A stretch of DNA of 64,000 nucleotides from an uncultured bacterium (GTDB lineage Bacteria > Verrucomicrobiota > Kiritimatiellia > RFP12 > UBA1067): NCBI GenBank assembly GCA_902769585.1, contig CACXPT010000004.1:1689-65688 (forward strand). Direction: 5' to 3'. The notes under the pieces are model-generated. The model was given only the letters and a program-made list of their open reading frames with translations, did not search any database and was not told where the DNA came from. Position 1 is the stretch's first letter. The number at the start of each line of letters is the position of its first letter. The translations under genes were made by a program, and so were the position numbers. Shown piece after piece: positions 17,420 through 63,561 of this stretch.

Positions 17420-17791
17420 ATGCTGATGTACGAGTTTATCGGAAAGGTAAAGGCAGTCGGCGAGCTGCAGACGTTCGCGAGCGGGTTCTCGAAGCGGGAG
17501 CTGGTCGTCGAGGAAGAGCGCGACGGCAGGTGGTCGAATGTGGTGGCGTTCTCGTTCAAGAAGGACAACGCCGCCCTGCTGGACGGGATGTTGCCGGGTG
17601 TGCGCGTGAAGGTGGGATTCGCGGTGGACGGACGCGAGTGGACAGATCCCAAGACAGGGAAGGTGCGGTACTTCTCGGATTTGACGGCGCTGAGGCTGGA
17701 GCGGCTTGACGGGGTGGTGGAGGTGCCGGAGCCGGCTGTCCCTGACAACGTGACATCCGGGCGCGATGATGACCCCGAAATCCCATTCTGA
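17420..17791 (+). CDS. DUF3127 domain protein (OB-fold-like)
   Basis: MLMYEFIGKVKAVGELQTFASGFSKRELVVEEE...VAFSFKKDNAALLDGMLPGVRVKVGFAVDGREW...KVRYFSDLTALRLE follows the DUF3127 pattern. AGGAAA lies just upstream of the ATG at 17420. The track start at 17342 is probably too far upstream. Confidence 0.7.
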   Translation: MLMYEFIGKVKAVGELQTFASGFSKRELVVEEERDGRWSNVVAFSFKKDNAALLDGMLPGVRVKVGFAVDGREWTDPKTGKVRYFSDLTALRLERLDGVVEVPEPAVPDNVTSGRDDDPEIPF

Positions 17792-17970
17792 GGTCATGCA
17801 GACTGACAAAGACATTTTCTGGGGACACCGTAGCGGCCTGCCGAGGGCAGGAATCCAGCGGAAACAAAGGCTGAATGCCGCAAGGCAGGATGCTCCCGCG
17901 ATAATGTGGTTCGGATTCGCGGTCCTGAAACACGGGCCATTCATCCGCAGCGGTCAATCCCCGTTTATTT

Positions 17971-18070
17971 AGGGAATAGGAAATAGGGAATAGGAAATAG
18001 GGAATAGGAAATAGGGAATAGGAAAGAGGGAATAGGAAAGAGGGAATAGGAAAGAGGGAATAGGGAATAG
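17971..18070. repeat. Purine-rich tandem repeat with a 14-bp unit: (AGGGAATAGGAAAT)x3, (AGGGAATAGGAAAG)x3, then AGGGAAT AGGGAATAGG
   Basis: Read directly from the sequence. It ends 33 bp upstream of the RT ORF start. The top strand contains no C. Confidence 0.95.
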
Positions 18071-18102
18071 GTTCGAGGGGATGTGAATAGTTGGAGGAGT
18101 GA

Positions 18103-19725
18103 ATGTGTGAGGTGAGGAAAGATGAGACAGTAGGAGATCTTGCGGGGTATATCTCGCTGGATGAGGTGGCGATGGCGCTCGCCAAGATGCGGATGCGCCG
18201 GACGGTCAGGAACGCCGGCGAGGAGTTCGTGCGGCGGTACATGTCCGTAGGCGGTGCGTCCGAGAACAAGAGCCCCGCCTGCGCTTTTCTGCCGCCGAGG
18301 CGGCAGTGGGTGCGCCAGGGACCGTGCGCGCGCCGGAGGAAAAGTTCGGCGCAGTTGCAGGTGGGCGCGATCATGCGTTGCGTCCGTGCCTGCGAAAGGA
18401 ATGGCTCGCTCGAGAAGACGGAGTGGGGACGGCGTCTCATCGGCCTTGTGGAGAATCTGCAGGGGCAGGTGGCGCGGCAGGAGTTTACCGTCGTGCCGCC
18501 GCGCAGCGCCAAGGTTCCGAAGCTCTCCGTGGACGGGACGCGTGGCGAGCGCGAGATTTCCGTCTTCGACGACCCCGCGACGGCGGTCCTGATCTCGCGC
18601 ACGGGCGCGTACCTCCGCGACTGGTTCGAGCCTGTCTTGAAACGCGGCAGGTGCTGTTACTCGTTCAGGAAGAATCCGAAGATCAGTCATCAGTCCGCGG
18701 TCAGGGATCTCTGCGCGTGGCGGAAGGCGCATGTGGACGCGTCCGCGTTCGTCGCCGAATGTGACATCCGGAAGTTTTTCGACAACATCCGACACGACGT
18801 GGTTGAAGAATCGATCCGACACTACATCGCCGAACTCGGCGCACCCGATTCGTCCGCCATGGGCGTTGTGTGCGCGTACTTGGCGTGTTACTGCAAGGAC
18901 GAGTCGGACGGCATCCGGCGTGGCATCCCGCAGGGCGGTGCGCTTTCGCCGACTCTCGCCAACATCGTCATGGCGCGGGCCGACGACACGGTGCTCGCGG
19001 CTGTGCAGCGGAATGCGTTCTACGCCCGGTACTGCGACGACATGGTGATCGCGTCCGTCGATGAGGGCGTCTGCCATTGCGCCATGGAAGCGTATCTCGG
19101 CGCGCTTGACGCGCTGGGCCTTCCTCCGCATCCCATGACGGAATTCGCCTATGGCCTTGAGTACTTCGAGGCGAAGAGCAAGGGCCCGTTCCGCTGGGAC
19201 TGGGCGAAGGCCGGCGAGCGGAACGTAGCGCCGTGGGTTTCCTTTCTCGGCAACCAGGTCAGGTGCGACGGCGAGGTGCGCGTGCGCGGGGACACCGTGG
19301 CGAAGCATGTGCTGAAGCTGAAGAAAGAGACGGGCGAGACGATCAACCGTCTCGCGAACGAGGGCGTATCTCTTCGCGCAGGAATGAATCCACGGAAGTT
19401 CTACACGGCGTTCATGCGCCGGATCGTCGCGAAGGGCGTGGGGTACATGAGGTCGGGGACGATCCCGAGCGACGGCCTCTGCTGGGCGGCGGCGTTTCCG
19501 AACATGACGAAGAACGCGGCCTGTGCGCGGCAGATGAGGATGCTGGATCGCGTGCGGTCGCGTTGCCTCGGGGCGCTGCGGCGGGTGTTGGGCCTGAAGG
19601 GGGCGGTCGTGCGTTTCGCCGGGCGTCCGTACAGCTATTTCGGCTACTTGATGAAGATGATGCGCCCGGCACGCGGCCCGAGAAGGACGCCTATGGTCGT
19701 GCGCCTGCCATATTCGGAGCTGTGA
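18103..19725 (+). CDS. Stand-alone reverse transcriptase (RVT_1-type) with a roughly 200-aa N-terminal extension
   Basis: 540 aa. RT motifs: PKLSVDGTRGEREISV (1/2), DIRKFFDNI (18763-18789), GIPQGGALSPTLAN (18922-18963), YARYCDDMVI (YCDD at 19030-19041), FLGNQV. There is a C-terminal thumb-like region. No endonuclease or other fused effector domain was recognised. The exact start is uncertain. Confidence 0.8.
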   Translation: MCEVRKDETVGDLAGYISLDEVAMALAKMRMRRTVRNAGEEFVRRYMSVGGASENKSPACAFLPPRRQWVRQGPCARRRKSSAQLQVGAIMRCVRACERNGSLEKTEWGRRLIGLVENLQGQVARQEFTVVPPRSAKVPKLSVDGTRGEREISVFDDPATAVLISRTGAYLRDWFEPVLKRGRCCYSFRKNPKISHQSAVRDLCAWRKAHVDASAFVAECDIRKFFDNIRHDVVEESIRHYIAELGAPDSSAMGVVCAYLACYCKDESDGIRRGIPQGGALSPTLANIVMARADDTVLAAVQRNAFYARYCDDMVIASVDEGVCHCAMEAYLGALDALGLPPHPMTEFAYGLEYFEAKSKGPFRWDWAKAGERNVAPWVSFLGNQVRCDGEVRVRGDTVAKHVLKLKKETGETINRLANEGVSLRAGMNPRKFYTAFMRRIVAKGVGYMRSGTIPSDGLCWAAAFPNMTKNAACARQMRMLDRVRSRCLGALRRVLGLKGAVVRFAGRPYSYFGYLMKMMRPARGPRRTPMVVRLPYSEL

Positions 19726-22876: not shown

Positions 22877-23052
22877 CTCCCCTAAGCATCCTTTAATTTT
22901 CGGGAATGGAATCGTTTAATTTTTCGGGAACGGGATTGACACCTGTTGGCTTTAAACGGCTTAATACTTGCAATCTCATCTGAAAATAATTATTTAAAAA
23001 TAAAGAAGGTGGTGGTTTCAACGGGCAAGATGCCCGTTGTTCCAGTGCGCCG

Positions 23053-23210
23053 CCAAGATGGCGGCTGCCCCAGCCAGAAAGCCGTCGGGACGTTCTGTTT
23101 TACGCGAGATAATTTTGAGACAAATTTGAGACATCTTTGAGACAATTCGGTGCCGGGGAACTGATATCCTGTTGCGCGTCGGCACAAAGCCGGCGGAAGC
23201 GAAGGATGCA
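23053..23210 (+). repeat. 158-bp upstream cassette, copy 1 (AAGATGGCGGC hairpin head + three TTTGAGACA boxes + 5' UTR/RBS)
   Basis: Aligned by eye with 24485-24642. I saw only about 6 mismatches (for example gagAcaaat/gagGcaaat, ctgAtatcc/ctgGtatcc, ttgCgcg/ttgTgcg, cggCGgaaG/cggTAgaaA). Confidence 0.9.
23114..23144 (+). promoter_or_regulatory. Three direct TTTGAGACA boxes at exact 11-bp spacing (operator/iteron-like)
   Basis: The boxes start at 23114, 23125 and 23136. The same array is at 24546, 24557 and 24568 in copy 2, where the first box is TTTGAGGCA. Confidence 0.55.
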
Positions 23211-23214
23211 GAAC

Positions 23215-24192
23215 ATGAAGAAAAGCACAATCTCGTTACAAGCGAATGGTCTCGCAGCCACGGAGAGAATGCCAATGGCCGATCTGACAGTCATTGAATC
23301 GGCAAGTGCCGACGTCATACGCTCGCGAATCCTCACGATTCGCGGCGTTCAGGTTTTGCTTGACCGCGACCTTGCGGCGCTTTATGGAGTAGAGGTGGGG
23401 CAACTCAATCGACAGGTTAAACGCAATCTTGAACGGTTTCCTGATGATTTTATGTTTCAGTTAAGTCATGAAGAATGTTCAAGATGCCAAATTGGCACCT
23501 TGAACGGAGGGCGCGGCAGTAACATAAAATATCTTCCATACGTCTTTACGGAAAACGGCGTGGCGATGTTGAGCGGTGTCCTACGATCACCCCGTGCAAT
23601 CGCCGCAAACATTCAAATCATGCGGGCGTTTGTCGCTATGCGCAAGGCTCTCGCGTCCATCGCGCCGCTTCTTGCCCGTATAGATGCAACCGAACGGCGG
23701 CAGATTGCGGATCAGGCGAAAAACGACGCCAATCAGGTCCGTAACGAAGAACGCTTCAAGCTGATACTGGACGCGATGCGGGACAAGAAGTTTCCACCGC
23801 AGAAGGTGTTCTACGACGGGCAGATATACGACGCTTTCGAGCAGATGAAGAAATTCGTGCGTATGGCGCGGACGGAACTGATCGTCATCGACCCGTACTT
23901 CGACGACTCTGTCCTGCCGCTCATCGCGCAAAAGCGTCTGGGCGTGTCGGTTCTCGTGGTGAAGAACACGCGGAACAAGCTACTTCATGCCGTCGATGTG
24001 GCAAGGTTCAACGCGCAGTACGCCAACTCGCTCACGGTCATGACCTCCGATAAGTTCCACGACCGTTTCCTCATAATCGACAAGGCGGTGCTCATCCACG
24101 TGGGCGCATCGCTGAACCACCTTGGCAAGAAGTGCTTCGCCTTCTCGTCAATGGACAAGTCCAATATCCCCGACATTCTGGCGAAGATATGA
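23215..24192 (+). CDS. ORF6N (KilA-N-related) DNA-binding domain protein with a C-terminal HxR..D..GASxN PLD-like module
   Basis: Start at MKKSTISL (GAAGGA Shine-Dalgarno). The N-terminus IRSRILTIRGVQVLLDRDLAALYGVEVGQLNRQVKRNLERFPDDFMFQL is a typical ORF6N pattern. The C-terminus contains FHDRFLIIDKAVLIHVGASLNHLG (24058-24117). Confidence 0.75.
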   Translation: MKKSTISLQANGLAATERMPMADLTVIESASADVIRSRILTIRGVQVLLDRDLAALYGVEVGQLNRQVKRNLERFPDDFMFQLSHEECSRCQIGTLNGGRGSNIKYLPYVFTENGVAMLSGVLRSPRAIAANIQIMRAFVAMRKALASIAPLLARIDATERRQIADQAKNDANQVRNEERFKLILDAMRDKKFPPQKVFYDGQIYDAFEQMKKFVRMARTELIVIDPYFDDSVLPLIAQKRLGVSVLVVKNTRNKLLHAVDVARFNAQYANSLTVMTSDKFHDRFLIIDKAVLIHVGASLNHLGKKCFAFSSMDKSNIPDILAKI

Positions 24193-24391: not shown

Positions 24392-24484
24392 CTACCACCA
24401 GACTTTGCGAAATGCGGTGGTAGTCGGCGGGAGGTTGAAAGCGCCGCCAAGATGGCGGCTATCCCAGTCAGGGTGTGGACGCTT

Positions 24485-24642
24485 CCAAGATGGCGGCTGC
24501 CCCAGCCAGAAAGCCGTCGGGACGTTCTGTTTTACGCGAGATAATTTTGAGGCAAATTTGAGACATCTTTGAGACAATTCGGTGCCGGGGAACTGGTATC
24601 CTGTTGTGCGTCGGCACAAAGCCGGTAGAAACGAAGGATGCA
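24485..24642 (+). repeat. 158-bp upstream cassette, copy 2
   Basis: See copy 1. It ends at the start codon of the RhuM-type gene. Confidence 0.9.
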
Positions 24643-25631
24643 TGAAGAAAAGCACAGTATCGGCACAGACAGTTCCCCAGCCCGCCACGGCGCGGAACGA
24701 GATCGTCGTCTACCAGCCGGACGAGACCATACGGCTGGATGTCCGCCTTGAGAACGAGACGGTGTGGTTGACTCAAGAGCAGATAGCCAACCTGTTCGGG
24801 ACGAAAAGACCTGCAATAACAAAACACCTTGCAAACATCTACAAGAGTGGCGAATTGGAACGCGAGGGCACATGTTCCATTTTGGAACACATGGGCAATG
24901 ACGGGAAACAGGTGTATCGAACTAGGTTCTATAATCTTGATGCCATCCTGTCTGTAGGTTATCGCGTCAATAGTCGCAATGCAACTGTGTTCCGACGCTG
25001 GGCGACGCAAGTCCTTAAGGACTATCTTCTCAAAGGGTACGCATTTAGCCAGCGCCTGAACCAGCTGGAGGACAAGGTCGACCGGCGGCTTGCACAACAT
25101 GACCATGAGATCGTCGAACTGAAGGACAAGGTCGATTTCTTCGTCCAGACTTCTCTGCCCCCTGTGCGGGGCGTGTTCTACAATGATCAGGTGTTCGACG
25201 CGAGCGTGTTCGCGGCGCGTCACATCCTCTCCGCGAAGAAGTCGATCTTCCTCATCGACAGCTGGGTGGACGTGGTGACGCTGGAGCTTCTTGCGAAGAA
25301 GGCGAAGGGCGTGACTGTGGAGATCGTCACGTCGCGGCGCGGCAACAAGATATCGACTAGCGACATCGCGAAGTTCAACGCGCAGCACGGCGGCCTTCTG
25401 GTTCGCACGAGTAAGAACTTCCATGACCGTTTCCTGATCATAGACGATACGACGCTCTTCCTTGTGGGCGCGTCGCTGAAGGACCTCGGCTGCAAGTGTT
25501 TCGCCTTCGCGAAGCTCGACGCATCATTCATTCCAGCCCTGAAGGCGAGGGTATGGAAAAGGCGAAGCCGCCAAGATGGCGGCTGTCCCAGCCATAAAGC
25601 CGTCGGGACGTTGTGGCGGGTTGGTTTATAA
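24642..25631 (+). CDS. RhuM-family protein with the same C-terminal PLD-like module
   Basis: Start at MKKSTVSA. IVVYQPDETIRLDVRLENETVWLTQEQIANLFGTKRPAITKHLANIYKSGEL...YNLDAILSVGYRVNSRNATVFRRWATQVLKDYLLKGY matches the RhuM signature. The C-terminus contains FHDRFLIIDDTTLFLVGASLKDLG (from 25422). The last roughly 25 codons run into a copy of the AAGATGGCGGC repeat. Confidence 0.8.
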   Translation: MKKSTVSAQTVPQPATARNEIVVYQPDETIRLDVRLENETVWLTQEQIANLFGTKRPAITKHLANIYKSGELEREGTCSILEHMGNDGKQVYRTRFYNLDAILSVGYRVNSRNATVFRRWATQVLKDYLLKGYAFSQRLNQLEDKVDRRLAQHDHEIVELKDKVDFFVQTSLPPVRGVFYNDQVFDASVFAARHILSAKKSIFLIDSWVDVVTLELLAKKAKGVTVEIVTSRRGNKISTSDIAKFNAQHGGLLVRTSKNFHDRFLIIDDTTLFLVGASLKDLGCKCFAFAKLDASFIPALKARVWKRRSRQDGGCPSHKAVGTLWRVGL

Positions 25632-58704: not shown

Positions 58705-59705
58705 GCGGGAACGACCATCTTCCCTCCAACCGGGCGGCGCACGACGACGAGGCCGTGCGCCGCTTCCGTTCACACCTGCTTGCCGAGCGAAACGCCTCAG
58801 ACCACACGGCGGCCGGATACGAGCAGGACATCTCGCAGTTTGCCGCCTTCCGCTGGGGCGCAGACGTGCAGCCGCCCTTCGAATGGGCGCGCGTCACGCC
58901 AGAGGATGCACGCAACTTCCTGATGGCGTTCGCCGGGGATGGCGCAAAGGCGACCACGACGCGCCGCAAGCTCGCGTCGATGCGCGCCTTCTTCCGCCAC
59001 CTCGTGCGCACTGGCGCGGTGGAGGCAAACCCGTTCGCGGGGCTGCGAGGGCCGAAGCTGCCCAAGCCGCTGCCGCGCACGCTCTCCGTCGCAGACGTGA
59101 CGCGCTTTCTCAAGGCGCCGGAGGAGGAACTGAATCGGCGGCGTAAGGCCGGTCTTCCGGTTTCGCCAGAGCAGGTCTACGCGAGCCTCTGCGACACCGC
59201 GCTATTCGAGGCTCTATACTCGACGGGGTGCCGCATATCCGAGGTGGTGCCGCTCGTCTGGCGGCAGATCAACTTCTCTTCGGGCGCAGTGATCGTGACG
59301 GGCAAGGGCGCCAAGCAGCGCCTCTGCATTCTAGGCAAGCCCGCCCTCAAGGCTTTGCGGAATCTGCGCGAGAAGGCTGCGGAGCGCTGGCCAGACGGCG
59401 GCGCGGATGCGACCGCGATCTTCCTCAACGAGAGGGGGCGTCCGCTCGGTCCGCGCGACGCGCAGCGGCGCATGAAGAAGTGGCTGGCGGTCGCCGGGCT
59501 GCCTACGGACCTCACCCCGCACAAGCTCCGCCACAGCTTCGCGACGCACCTTCTGGACGCGGGGGCGGACCTGCGCAGCGTGCAGGAGATGCTTGGGCAC
59601 TCGTCGCTTGCGACGACGCAAATCTACACGCACGTGTCGGTGGAGCACCTGAAGGACGAGTACATGAAGGCGCATCCGCTGGCGCAACGGAGGAACGACG
59701 AATGA
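58701..59705 (+). CDS. Tyrosine site-specific recombinase, XerC/XerD family
   Basis: The GTG start overlaps the topA stop (GTGA). FRSHLLAERNASDHTAAGYEQDI (SAM-like N-domain); C-terminal GCRISEV, HKLRHSFATHLLDAGADLRSVQEMLGHSSLATTQIYTHV. The track start at 57903 is a read-through artefact. Confidence 0.85.
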   Translation: MSGNDHLPSNRAAHDDEAVRRFRSHLLAERNASDHTAAGYEQDISQFAAFRWGADVQPPFEWARVTPEDARNFLMAFAGDGAKATTTRRKLASMRAFFRHLVRTGAVEANPFAGLRGPKLPKPLPRTLSVADVTRFLKAPEEELNRRRKAGLPVSPEQVYASLCDTALFEALYSTGCRISEVVPLVWRQINFSSGAVIVTGKGAKQRLCILGKPALKALRNLREKAAERWPDGGADATAIFLNERGRPLGPRDAQRRMKKWLAVAGLPTDLTPHKLRHSFATHLLDAGADLRSVQEMLGHSSLATTQIYTHVSVEHLKDEYMKAHPLAQRRNDE

Positions 59706-61087
59706 AAAACGCATACAAGTGGCTGCTGCTGGCGATGCTGAGCTTCGCCTTCTTCTTCCATCAGGCTGACCGGGCGCTGTTCGGTCTCCTGACGATCCCG
59801 ATCCAGGAGGAGCTGCACCTGACGGACGTGCAGATCGGCTGGATCAACACAGTGCTGTCATGGACGCTAGCGCTGATGACGACGGTGGCCGGTTTCTGCG
59901 GCGACAGGTTCAGCCGGAAGTGGCTCATCACCGGCTCACTGATGTTCTGGTCGCTGATGACGGTGGGCATGGGCTTCGTGGGGAACTTCACGCTCCTGGG
60001 GATAGGCATATCTGCATACGCGTGCGTGATGTTCTTCCGCTCGATCGCCACTGGCGGCGGCGAGTCGTTCTACGCGCCTAGCGCGTACGCGCTCATAGCG
60101 GTGCACCACAAGGAGACGCGCTCCGTGGCGCTTTCGGTGCATCAGGCGGCGCTATACATCGGGCTCATGACGAGCGGCGCGCTCGTCGCGTGGATCCTCC
60201 ACGGGCTTAAGGGCAGCGCATGGGTGGAGTCGTGCTTCGGCACGCTCGGCTACTGGCGGCCCGTGTTCATCATCTTCGGCGCGCTCGGCTTCTTCCTCGG
60301 CATACTCTTCGTTTTCTTCCTCAAGGATGCCAAGGACCTTGACGCCCCTAATGCCCCTAAAAACCTTAAAACCCCTAACGACCTTAACGACCCTAATGAC
60401 CTTAAAGATTCCAGTGATCTTGCCCCTGCCCAAAAGCCGCCGCTACTGGAGGGACTGAAGGCCTACTTCTGCAATCCGTCAGCGCTCCTGGCGACGAGCG
60501 GATTCATCGCGATCGTGTTCGTGAACAACGCTTATCTCTTCTGGGCGCCGAAATTCGTGGCGCAGAAGTTCGCGACGGAGCTGGGAGACTCCGCGGTGGC
60601 CACTGCGGGTAACGGCACGATGCTCTATCACCACGTCTGCGCGTTCGCGGCGATCATGGCGGGCGGTTTCCTCACGGACGCGCTGGTGAAGCGCTATCCG
60701 CGCTTCCGCCTGCTGTTCCAGTCCTGCGCGCTTTTCCTCGGCGCGCCGGCGCTCGTGTTCGTGGCCTACGCGCCTAGCGTGTCCGCCACATGGGCGGCGG
60801 TGGCGCTGTACGGCGTGTTCCGCGGCTTCTTCGAAGTGAACACGCACGCCTCTCTCTTCGACGTGGTTGCGCCAAAGTACCGCTCGACGGCGGTGGGGCT
60901 GCTCAACATGCTGGCGTTCTTCTTCGGTGGCCTCTCGGGCATCCTGATGGGGCATCTTTCAAGGTCGCAGGGCGTGGCCGGGTTCGAGCTCGGCTTCGCG
61001 CTCATGGGCGGCGTCTACGCCGTGGCCGGATGCCTGATGCTCTGCTCGCTTTTCTTCACGTTCAAGAAAAACCGCGTGATGGAATAG
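59702..61087 (+). CDS. MFS transporter
   Basis: ATGA overlap with the recombinase stop. About 12 TM helices and GDRFSRK (an MFS motif A-like loop). The central loop carries a low-complexity insert DLDAPNAPKNLKTPNDLNDPNDLKDSSDL. Confidence 0.8.
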   Translation: MKNAYKWLLLAMLSFAFFFHQADRALFGLLTIPIQEELHLTDVQIGWINTVLSWTLALMTTVAGFCGDRFSRKWLITGSLMFWSLMTVGMGFVGNFTLLGIGISAYACVMFFRSIATGGGESFYAPSAYALIAVHHKETRSVALSVHQAALYIGLMTSGALVAWILHGLKGSAWVESCFGTLGYWRPVFIIFGALGFFLGILFVFFLKDAKDLDAPNAPKNLKTPNDLNDPNDLKDSSDLAPAQKPPLLEGLKAYFCNPSALLATSGFIAIVFVNNAYLFWAPKFVAQKFATELGDSAVATAGNGTMLYHHVCAFAAIMAGGFLTDALVKRYPRFRLLFQSCALFLGAPALVFVAYAPSVSATWAAVALYGVFRGFFEVNTHASLFDVVAPKYRSTAVGLLNMLAFFFGGLSGILMGHLSRSQGVAGFELGFALMGGVYAVAGCLMLCSLFFTFKKNRVME

Positions 61088-62880: not shown

Positions 62881-63486
62881 ATGACGTTGCAGGAGTTCAA
62901 GGACGTGTGGAAGCGGGCGGCGGAGAAGATCGCCGCGCGCGAGAACGACTATTCGGCGCTGGATGCCGCCGCGGGCGGCGACGGCGACCACGGCGAGGCC
63001 ATAGTGGCGGCGACGCGCGCGCTGGCCGCCGCGGAGGGGAGTGACTTCAAGTCGCTGCTCGAGGACATGGTGTCGCACCTGGAGTCCGACGTGAGCGGCT
63101 CCACCAGCTCGCTGTACGGCACGCTCTTCGAGGGAATGGCCGACGCCGTGGACGCGGGCAAGGTCGAGCTGTCCGCGCCGGAGATCGCCGATCTCTTCGC
63201 CGCCGGACTGGAGGAGCTTGGCTTCGCCACGAAGGCGAAGGTGGGTGACAAGACGTTCATGGACGCCCTCATCCCGGCCGTGGAGGCTCTGAAGGCGCAT
63301 GCGGCAGAGGGCGAGGCCGCGATGTTCGCGGCGGCCGCGGCTGCGGCTAAGGCCGGCAGCGACGCGACCGCGCAGATGCAGGCGAAGTTCGGGCGCGCGA
63401 AGAACCTCGGCGAGCGCTCCATCGGCCCGATCGACGCGGGCAGCGCGTCCAACGCCGACATCTGGGGCTGCTTCGCAGCCGGTTAA
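62881..63486 (+). CDS. dhaL: Dihydroxyacetone kinase subunit L (ADP-binding)
   Basis: 201 aa. LDAAAGGDGDHG (the DhaL nucleotide/Mg site motif), GSTSSLYGTLF, GDKTFMDAL.PA, GRAKNLGERSIG..DAGS. Confidence 0.85.
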   Translation: MTLQEFKDVWKRAAEKIAARENDYSALDAAAGGDGDHGEAIVAATRALAAAEGSDFKSLLEDMVSHLESDVSGSTSSLYGTLFEGMADAVDAGKVELSAPEIADLFAAGLEELGFATKAKVGDKTFMDALIPAVEALKAHAAEGEAAMFAAAAAAAKAGSDATAQMQAKFGRAKNLGERSIGPIDAGSASNADIWGCFAAG

Positions 63487-63550
63487 AGTTGAGAAGTTGA
63501 GATGTTGAGATGTTGAGAAGTTGAGATGTTGAGAAGTTAAAAAGTTAAAG
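63487..63550. repeat. 8-bp tandem repeat: GTTGAGAW x6 followed by two degenerate units (GTTAAAAA, GTTAAAGG)
   Basis: Read directly. It starts right after the dhaL stop (63484-63486) and runs into the GGAG Shine-Dalgarno of the next gene. Confidence 0.95.
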
Positions 63551-63561
63551 GAGACAAAACA

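Follow-up and report, generated by a model that had tools for sequence, protein, structure and literature searches.

The window, a stretch of 64 kb of bacterial DNA analysed here as a whole, carries a gene for a reverse transcriptase (RT) inside a low-GC defence island. This island extends over ~3.3-25.6 kb and is bounded by a PBP1 gene and rpoB. It contains DUF4062, NERD, DUF1848, ORF6N and RhuM proteins, a YhcG-type PDDEXK nuclease and one or more SF1 helicases, and it also holds the neighbours of the RT: a 1794-aa SACS/HATPase + SF1 helicase protein (TmtA/MkoA-like by PADLOC), a DUF3127 protein, a Sel1-like protein and an HD protein. Which of these genes travel with the RT? The recurrent neighbours in related loci are DUF3127, DUF1848 (near the RT in ~10 of them), a TOTE-type TPR protein, DprA, HD and Sel1. 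The DUF3127 gene, directly upstream in the window, occurs in 17 related loci, before the RT in some and after it in others, and neighbour clustering describes it as a variable neighbour and no fixed part of the module. In ~9 loci (L009, L011, L094, L105 and others) it is replaced by a small acidic ORF sitting directly before the non-coding RNA (ncRNA) described below; the product of this ORF ends in ...GIWYDGYYCADA(S/T)DYEEAE(M/T)EYWNTH* and has no Pfam match. Another feature of the island is a pair of near-identical ~200-nt upstream regions (23000-23200 and 24430-24640), each with a GAGACAAATTT x3.6 array, which precede adjacent paralogous-looking genes for an ORF6N protein (23137-24192) and a RhuM/Bro-N protein (24582-25631).

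The RT has a YCDD active site and, judged from alignment columns, two invariant C-terminal tyrosines, Y512 and Y537, the second within a terminal LPYSEL. Over its full length Pfam finds RVT_1 alone and no known fused domain. A sequence search of solved structures returned generic RT-domain matches only (a group II intron RT, DRT2, DRT3a and a 499-residue 'RNA-dependent DNA polymerase'). PADLOC places the protein in RT_UG39 (E 4.7e-94), followed by Drt2 (E 7.9e-18), Drt9 (E 2.3e-17) and UG17 (E 4.1e-16). The same profile is the best match for 32 of 32 aligned relatives (best E 3.8e-112), with Drt9 second. Almost all relatives of the RT come from rumen or gut Kiritimatiellae and other uncultured bacteria. 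Work of Mestre et al. split UG39 from UG28, which is DRT9, and tied it to a VirE + PriCT-2 neighbour, cluster 64 (PMC9226505). No VirE or PriCT-2 domain was seen among the neighbours of the window RT or of the related loci, and thus the Kiritimatiellae clade is UG39-like by sequence with a different gene context. The features around the RT start are collected in Table 1.

Table 1. Features of the RT locus, in window coordinates, with the basis of each assignment.
Feature	Position	Strand	Basis or remark
DUF3127 gene directly upstream	17420-17791	+	Pfam PF11325, E 3.8e-15; gene calls on identical contigs L001/L002
Structured ncRNA, clade A form	17820-17969	+	nhmmer, RNAalifold, pair counts
P1 closing stem	17820-17825 / 17958-17963	+	Clade A consensus structure
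P1b	17828-17835 / 17946-17953	+	Clade A consensus structure
Hairpin SLa	17837-17851	+	Clade A consensus structure
SL5-like hairpin, loop UGAAACAC	17922-17937	+	Clade A consensus structure
Single-stranded linker AUUCAU	17940-17945	+	Clade A consensus structure
3' U-tract UUUAUU closing the ncRNA	17964-17969	+	Array begins at the next base
Heptad array	17970-18071	+	14 phased heptads, XAG-KK-RA
Degenerate purine-rich leader tail	18072-18102	+	Sequence
RT Shine-Dalgarno GGAGG	18093-18097	+	Homologues with comparable SD + ATG contexts
Reverse transcriptase, 540 aa, UG39-type	18103-19725	+	Pfam RVT_1; PADLOC RT_UG39

Immediately before the RT, and on its strand, lies what the first-pass annotation had described as a 14-bp, C-free, purine-rich tandem repeat, a description borne out by direct reading of the sequence and by TRF. 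The tract reads T + (AGGGAATAGGAAAT)x3 + (AGGGAATAGGAAAG)x3 + AGGGAATAGGGAATAGG, the end being spelled AGGGAATAGGGAATAGG after (AGGGAATAGGAAAG)3. TRF reports a period of 14 with 7.3 copies, 96% matches and a score of 176, or 14.6 copies at a period of 7. Read as heptads, TAGGGAA alternates with TAGGAAA, with three GAG variants. The distance to the RT ORF had been given as 33 bp; counted to the ATG it is 31 nt, the two counts ending the last partial unit at slightly different points. The C-free run covers 111 nt (17963-18073) and, after a single C at 18074, the sequence is again free of C up to 18127. As the G+C content of the window is 60%, a run of this length excludes chance.

What could such a sequence encode, fold into or bind? 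A UAG every 7 nt closes each of the three frames once per 21 nt, there is no start codon in the tract, and the complementary strand, which has no G, cannot hold ATG, GTG or TTG. DRT2 (UG2), one of the models first proposed, makes repetitive cDNA by rolling-circle synthesis of a 'neo' gene and also has an ncRNA upstream of its RT. A DRT2-like role is nevertheless excluded here, as the tract permits no ORF on either strand. Most arrays of related loci contain UGA and UAA in addition to UAG, the only stop of the window array, and a sensor of amber suppression was rejected on this ground. With no C and little U the tract cannot fold; it is predicted to be unpaired with a probability of 0.87, compared with 0.37 for the ncRNA. 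Is it then a docking site for ribosomes? Pairing of the arrays with the 3' end of 16S rRNA (mean -4.85 kcal/mol) is no better than that of composition-matched shuffles (-4.67 kcal/mol) and the strongest site is weaker (-7.9 vs -10.2 kcal/mol). The arrays avoid strong Shine-Dalgarno sites, and a Shine-Dalgarno-like standby site was discarded. So was a G-quadruplex, because GGG runs occur only in the TAGGGAA variant and not in the common TAGTGAA and TAGGTAA units, and most heptads do not match the motifs of CsrA (GGA) and Hfq (ARN). On the + strand no sigma-70 promoter or simple hairpin terminator was found in or beside the array; the sole promoter-like match lies upstream, at 17742-17770.

An ncRNA scaffold was another role suggested for the repeat, but the scaffold is a separate RNA just upstream, between the stop of DUF3127 (17791) and the first heptad. 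nhmmer finds this element directly upstream of 24 clade-A and 36 clade-B RT genes. A conserved structured ncRNA exists upstream of the RT, and the covariation is strong in sister clade B. For clade A, whose form is that of the window, RNAalifold and pair counts give 29 pairs, 99.4% paired, with 3 double-change pairs and little variation. For clade B, RNAalifold draws a 19-bp closing stem, a hairpin and a second stem bearing another hairpin, with ~30 nt single-stranded before the 3' strand of the closing stem. Its 44 pairs are 97.4% paired, and 16 of them show double changes, against 2-8 in slid controls, with a covariation score of 0.31 against 0.06-0.07. A covariance model of the clade-B form also matches, weakly and at the expected place, the clade-C loci L017, L066, L023, L021 and L043. 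Rfam has nothing for the ncRNA at gathering threshold and nothing at E<=10. Second copies of the clade-B ncRNA lie downstream of the clade-C RT in L135 (4624-4772) and L133 (6491-6636). The first of these is fused to a truncated C-terminal fragment of an RT and the second is followed by unrelated hairpin-rich DNA; both are decayed tandem RT modules.

In layout this RNA matches the ncRNAs described for DRT9 and DRT10: hairpins branch from a closing stem, a short linker precedes the stem's 3' strand and in those two systems holds the template, and the 3' end is rich in U (PMC12483538; PMC12632851), an end that is non-essential in DRT9 (PMC12483538). By comparison, the linker AUUCAU would occupy the position of the DRT9/DRT10 template. 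Internal direct repeats of the linkers have a mean best length of 4.26 nt, vs 3.64 nt in shuffles, in sequences that are mutually related. Alignments A2 and A3 show no invariant internal U4 in the ncRNA, the conserved U-tract being its 3' end, and a U-rich linker (GGUUUCUUUCC) occurs only in one array-less sub-clade. Could the heptads be a footprint of repetitive reverse transcription, as was also put forward? Read by hand, the ncRNA sequences contain no stretch that equals the heptad or is complementary to it, which leaves this origin without support.

Is the array a property of the RT or a habit of these genomes? Of 162 RT-homologue loci, 21 have an array within ~250 nt upstream of the RT by a strict rule (at least three phased heptads of TAG + 4 non-C); the flanking DNA, 1.33 Mb searched on both strands, contains a single other one, and the 64-kb window has no second TAG-heptad array. 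The array is thus specific to the RT, and neither chance nor a general genomic habit. The caveat raised earlier, that tandem repeats may be common in this DNA, holds in part: the other repeats of the window exist according to TRF, and one of them (63481-63554) is a C-free intercistronic repeat. It does not hold for TAG heptads. TRF on the 600 nt upstream of each homologue finds arrays of 7-nt period built of TAGTGAA, TAGGTAA, TAGGGAA and TAGTGGA, and relatives of 36-100% identity are preceded by analogous C-free, purine-rich heptads on the RT strand, as the first-pass annotation had wished to see checked. The repeat of the window is therefore the local form of a conserved (UAGNGAA)n tract lying between the ncRNA and the start of a UG39-type RT in many rumen Kiritimatiellae.

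The phasing of this tract is tight. A TAG-TAG spacing of 7 was counted in 80 cases in 89 unique upstream regions, against a flat control distribution. The in-phase logo is U.89 A.99 G1.0 K K A.75 A.92, where the X of XAG is mostly U and sometimes G. Superimposed is a 14-nt alternation of odd units TAG-TG-AA and even units TAG-GT-NA, of which TAGGGAA/TAGGAAA is the window version. The first heptad comes directly after a T-run in 11 of 12 arrays. The first four units (28 nt, UAGUGAA UAGGUAA ...) hardly differ between clade A, clade B and L066, and these four heptads beside the ncRNA are the best-conserved nucleotides of the whole locus across those clades, whose RTs share 36-44% identity with the window RT and whose ncRNAs cannot be aligned by nhmmer. 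Units nearer the ribosome-binding site are degenerate.

Could the array nevertheless be a neutral microsatellite, a slippage-prone and functionless filler tolerated in an untranslated gap? Copy numbers between 0 and ~15 would be expected of such a filler, and so would higher-order units of 14, 21 and 26 nt duplicated between close relatives (e.g. L121 vs L125); the nearly perfect units of the window imply a recent expansion. But the same heptads follow one another in the same order in clades that are this divergent in RT and ncRNA, and with 21 upstream arrays against a single one in the flanks the repeat is strictly strand- and RT-specific, which makes a neutral origin very unlikely.

On a neighbour-joining tree the arrays are scattered unevenly over the sister clades A and B, at 0 to ~15 units, with one more in L066; the deeper clades and all 58 loci below 30% identity have no array. 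About half of the close relatives in clades A and B keep RT and ncRNA intact and have no array. In a successful sub-clade without arrays (L011, L108, L112-L117, L145, L024) the RT starts 12-14 nt past the closing stem, and in L111, L119 and L120 a GC hairpin is found where others have the array. The array is therefore dispensable for the core function of enzyme and RNA. The leaders of array-less relatives contain C and hairpins, so freedom from C is no general requirement either. In L008 an insertion of ~100 nt, GC-rich, parts the ncRNA from residual heptads, which still adjoin the RT ATG. Two loci have other tracts after the ncRNA stem: L103 (488-586) carries, at the array position, a G-poor, CGTCT-type tract of ~7-nt period, and L010 (3142-3200) carries the short direct repeats GTTTTCATG and GTTTTCCTG, with GTTTTCNNN x2.

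Among samples of the same strain the picture is one of stability. Four other ENA contigs with the same RT carry the window array unchanged, as do the Logan contigs of 4 bovine metagenomes (runs X1-X4), with no length variants; in a fifth ENA contig, L003, a scaffold gap interrupts the array. Given this identity across the independent samples checked, the array is not hypervariable. This bears on a possible phase-variation (contingency) switch, in which frequent gain or loss of units would change RT expression among the members of a population. A short tandem repeat this close to perfect, directly before a defence gene, is what such a switch would look like, and a related strain in run X34 does have a different 65-nt tract in the array's place. 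The constancy of the array in the same-RT assemblies and runs argues against it, as do the imperfect arrays of most relatives, which disfavour frequent slippage, and a switch of this kind is highly improbable. Simple-sequence contingency loci also have a short tandem repeat just upstream of a phage-conflict gene, but differ from the present case in that here same-strain samples do not vary in length and the repeat is conserved across distant lineages.

Similar repeats exist away from RTs. In the phage contig L169, the first TAG of a (TAGGGAATAGGAAA)n array is the stop codon of the upstream ORF, and the array ends at the Shine-Dalgarno site of the next one. A (TAGGGAATAGGAAA)n array also runs up to an ORF start in the phage contig L168, and one phage family (9 contigs) has three heptads that directly follow a stop codon and precede a terminator. 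The viral contig collection contains no homologues of the RT. In the window, a C-free 8-mer array, (AAGTTGAG)~7.6, with a TGA in each unit (63481-63554), spans from the TAA of an ORF ending at 63486 to the GGAG + ATG of the next ORF, an architecture equal to that of the RT leader and of L169. Other C-free, TGA-rich leaders occur in related loci. The 9/18-nt repeat at 60354-60408 is not intergenic; it lies inside a 619-aa ORF (59228-61087) and codes for a peptide repeat of PN(A/D)(P/L)K type.

Is the array transcribed, and with what? The window locus is absent from all RNA runs searched, and the data come from related loci. A contig of the bovine metatranscriptome X39 (L093-type locus) covers the ncRNA together with 16 nt before it and the initial 33 nt of the array after it, leaving the RT ORF uncovered. 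The X38 RNA contig spans the latter half of the ncRNA, all of the array and the RT up to nt 100. At a depth of 2-4x, where DNA carry-over is possible, these contigs suggest that the array is co-transcribed with the ncRNA. Another contig of X39, 536 nt long and 8.4 deep, matches L093 383-418 and has the array twice, in opposite orientations ~30 nt apart; its flanks are unlike the RT locus and it could come from another genomic context or be a snap-back artefact of the library. Over 18033-18071, runs X34-X37 (rumen RNA and DNA) contain 37-nt unitigs at depth 18-46, the locus itself being at 0-3.5x. At k=31, unitigs of this length point to a perfect 7-nt repeat, (AGGGAAT)n. Array 31-mers turn up in marine poly-A RNA runs as well, and eukaryotic microsatellites are the likeliest source of the deep (AGGGAAT)n unitigs.

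How do these observations fit together? The tract most likely belongs to the untranslated leader of the RT rather than being a template for DNA synthesis. More specifically, and only tentatively, we favour a reading of the array as a leader that stays untranslated and insulates RT expression, within a defence module of a UG39-type RT and an ncRNA. The ncRNA would be transcribed first and would fold into a closed multi-helix structure ending in the U-tract, and transcripts running past this U-tract would carry the (UAGKGAA)n tract and then the ribosome-binding site of the RT. A tract that cannot fold, is closed in all frames and has neither a strong Shine-Dalgarno site nor a start codon could act as an inert single-stranded insulator between the RT start and the tightly folded, presumably RT-bound ncRNA. 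It might in this way help to set the amount of RT made from read-through transcripts. Its length could shift between lineages by slippage or by unequal exchange of 7-, 14-, 21- or 26-nt units. In this arrangement the template for cDNA is more probably to be sought within the ncRNA, in the linker that follows the SL5-like hairpin, if DRT9 and DRT10 are a guide. Of the options given by the first-pass annotation, a slippage-prone spacer tuning RT expression comes closest.

Several lines of evidence agree with an insulating leader. The array fills the gap from the U-tract of the ncRNA to the Shine-Dalgarno site and ATG of the RT, always on the RT strand, and can be missing from clade A/B members whose RT and ncRNA are intact. 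In L008 the heptads stay with the ATG despite the insertion. Analogues without an RT sit in intercistronic gaps (L169, L168, the phage family and the 8-mer array of the window). Predicted unpairedness is high and the strongest anti-Shine-Dalgarno site is weaker than in shuffles; RNA contigs join ncRNA to array (X39) and ncRNA to array and RT start (X38); and the array is invariant across the independent samples checked. Other findings fit less well. An inert spacer should not keep its sequence, yet the heptads proximal to the ncRNA are the most conserved, and an element of translation should be most constrained on the side of the ribosome-binding site, where the units degenerate. Freedom from C is not general in array-less leaders, the RNA contigs are shallow, come from related loci and may be DNA contamination, and the X39 contig, in which the RT ORF is uncovered, fits an ncRNA with a heptad tail just as well. 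No conserved partner has been identified. The strong conservation of the units on the ncRNA side calls for a specific partner, and this is the main difficulty of the leader.

What might such a partner be? The heptads could form a periodic XAG platform, that is, a single-stranded operator for an oligomeric RNA-binding protein, either the RT oligomer or a host factor, with one XAG per subunit at 7-nt spacing. Bound in this way, the protein would control translation of the RT, assembly of the ncRNA with the RT, or RNA stability. The cross-clade conservation would then have its reason, and the logo agrees, with the A and G of XAG kept at 0.99 and 1.0 and a strict period of 7. The window offers 14 XAG triplets at exactly 7 nt, predicted to be single-stranded, when an operator takes at least three. 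Precedents are HutP, which binds (UAG-N4)3, and TRAP, which binds (G/U)AG repeats. HutP is a hexamer that recognises A and G, its model RNA is (UUUAGUU)3, and its sites flank a GC-rich terminator stem (PMC2425495). The RT of DRT9, the closest relative to have been characterised, is itself a hexamer made of two trimers (PMC12483538), so an RT oligomer is the obvious candidate for the XAG binder. Against a platform, no HutP or TRAP domain was found in 15 proteins of the window or in 10 representatives of the neighbour families, and positions 6-7 (AA) and the 14-nt alternation are conserved, unlike the spacers of HutP sites. Relatives without the array would also have to manage without the operator. 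As the array lies 3' of the U-tract, antitermination at that site is impossible. All in all, a protein platform is unlikely.

The insulating leader also has to be weighed against a role in DNA synthesis. In this scheme the heptads would be a 3' tail of the ncRNA; the RT would copy the units beside the closing stem, which serves as template boundary, and the nascent DNA would re-anneal on the next unit in the A-B-A' style of DRT10 and telomerase, giving a long, G-free (TTCNCTA)n single-stranded product. Formally the tract has both properties of a DRT10 template, being a direct repeat and lying immediately 3' of a stable stem (PMC12632851). Conservation peaks in the units beside the stem, other repeat families occur at the same position in L103 (CGTCT-type) and L010 (GTTTTCNNN x2), and the X39 contig runs from ncRNA into array with the RT ORF uncovered. 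Why, then, is a template track quite unlikely? Many relatives with intact RT and ncRNA have no tail, and in some of them the RT starts almost at the stem. DRT9 and DRT10 have their templates inside the closing stem, where this ncRNA has an equivalent linker. Stem and heptads are separated in L008, a template would need far fewer than the up to 15 units present, and similar arrays occur in intergenic regions of phages that have no RT. Nor does the product show in DNA: depth over the array in DNA metagenomes is 1-2.5x that of the flanks, and 4.8x in one run, as k-mer multiplicity predicts, and there is no clear excess of heptad DNA, bearing in mind that single-stranded DNA would escape standard libraries. 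If the track were real, it would add a third flavour of repeat synthesis to the telomerase-related DRT9/DRT10 lineage, with a template that is multi-copy in the genome.

The kinship with ncRNA-using defence RTs that was suspected from the start is supported: the repeat is part of a module in which RT and ncRNA are paired as in DRT9 and DRT10. Among characterised defence RTs, DRT9 (a UG28 RT with an ncRNA; PMC12483538) is the second-best PADLOC match. Shared with DRT9 are a single RT gene without an extra domain, a structured ncRNA upstream on the same strand with a U-rich 3' region, tyrosines that are invariant near the C-terminus, and the setting of a defence island. The two differ in that no universally conserved internal U4 or poly-U template loop is evident here, and in that DRT9 has not been described with a repeat array between ncRNA and RT. 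DRT9 makes poly-dA by protein priming; the tyrosines of the present RT are Y512 and Y537. DRT10 (a UG17 RT with an ncRNA and SLATT; PMC12632851) is a Class 2 UG RT whose ncRNA, like the one here, has a large closing stem with hairpins. It makes tandem-repeat DNA from an A-B-A' direct repeat 3' of a stable stem, but its template amounts to 1.x copies inside the closing stem, against up to 15 copies outside it here. Moreover, no SLATT domain was found in the neighbours of the window RT or in the representatives of recurrent neighbour families, and many relatives here have no tract.

The resemblance to the operators of HutP and TRAP (PMC2425495) is of another kind. There, too, single-stranded (U/G)AG triplets stand at fixed spacing, exactly 7 nt in the case of HutP, with a GC-rich stem and its U-tract alongside and the regulated gene downstream. 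Here, however, the neighbouring genes include none for HutP or TRAP, the U-tract precedes the array, and the repeats, conserved in their spacers too, are far more numerous. The DRT literature that was searched makes no mention of a conserved heptad tract joined to an ncRNA. UG39, a Class 2 UG/Abi group, is a known but uncharacterised branch of defence RTs, and it now has a candidate ncRNA supported by covariation, together with an unusual conserved cis element, the phased (UAGKGAA)n tract. Insulator, protein platform or template track, this tract is a precise and mutable handle on how production of ncRNA and enzyme is coupled, in a branch most closely related to DRT9 and DRT10, which copy small RNA templates into homopolymers or into telomere-like repeat DNA.
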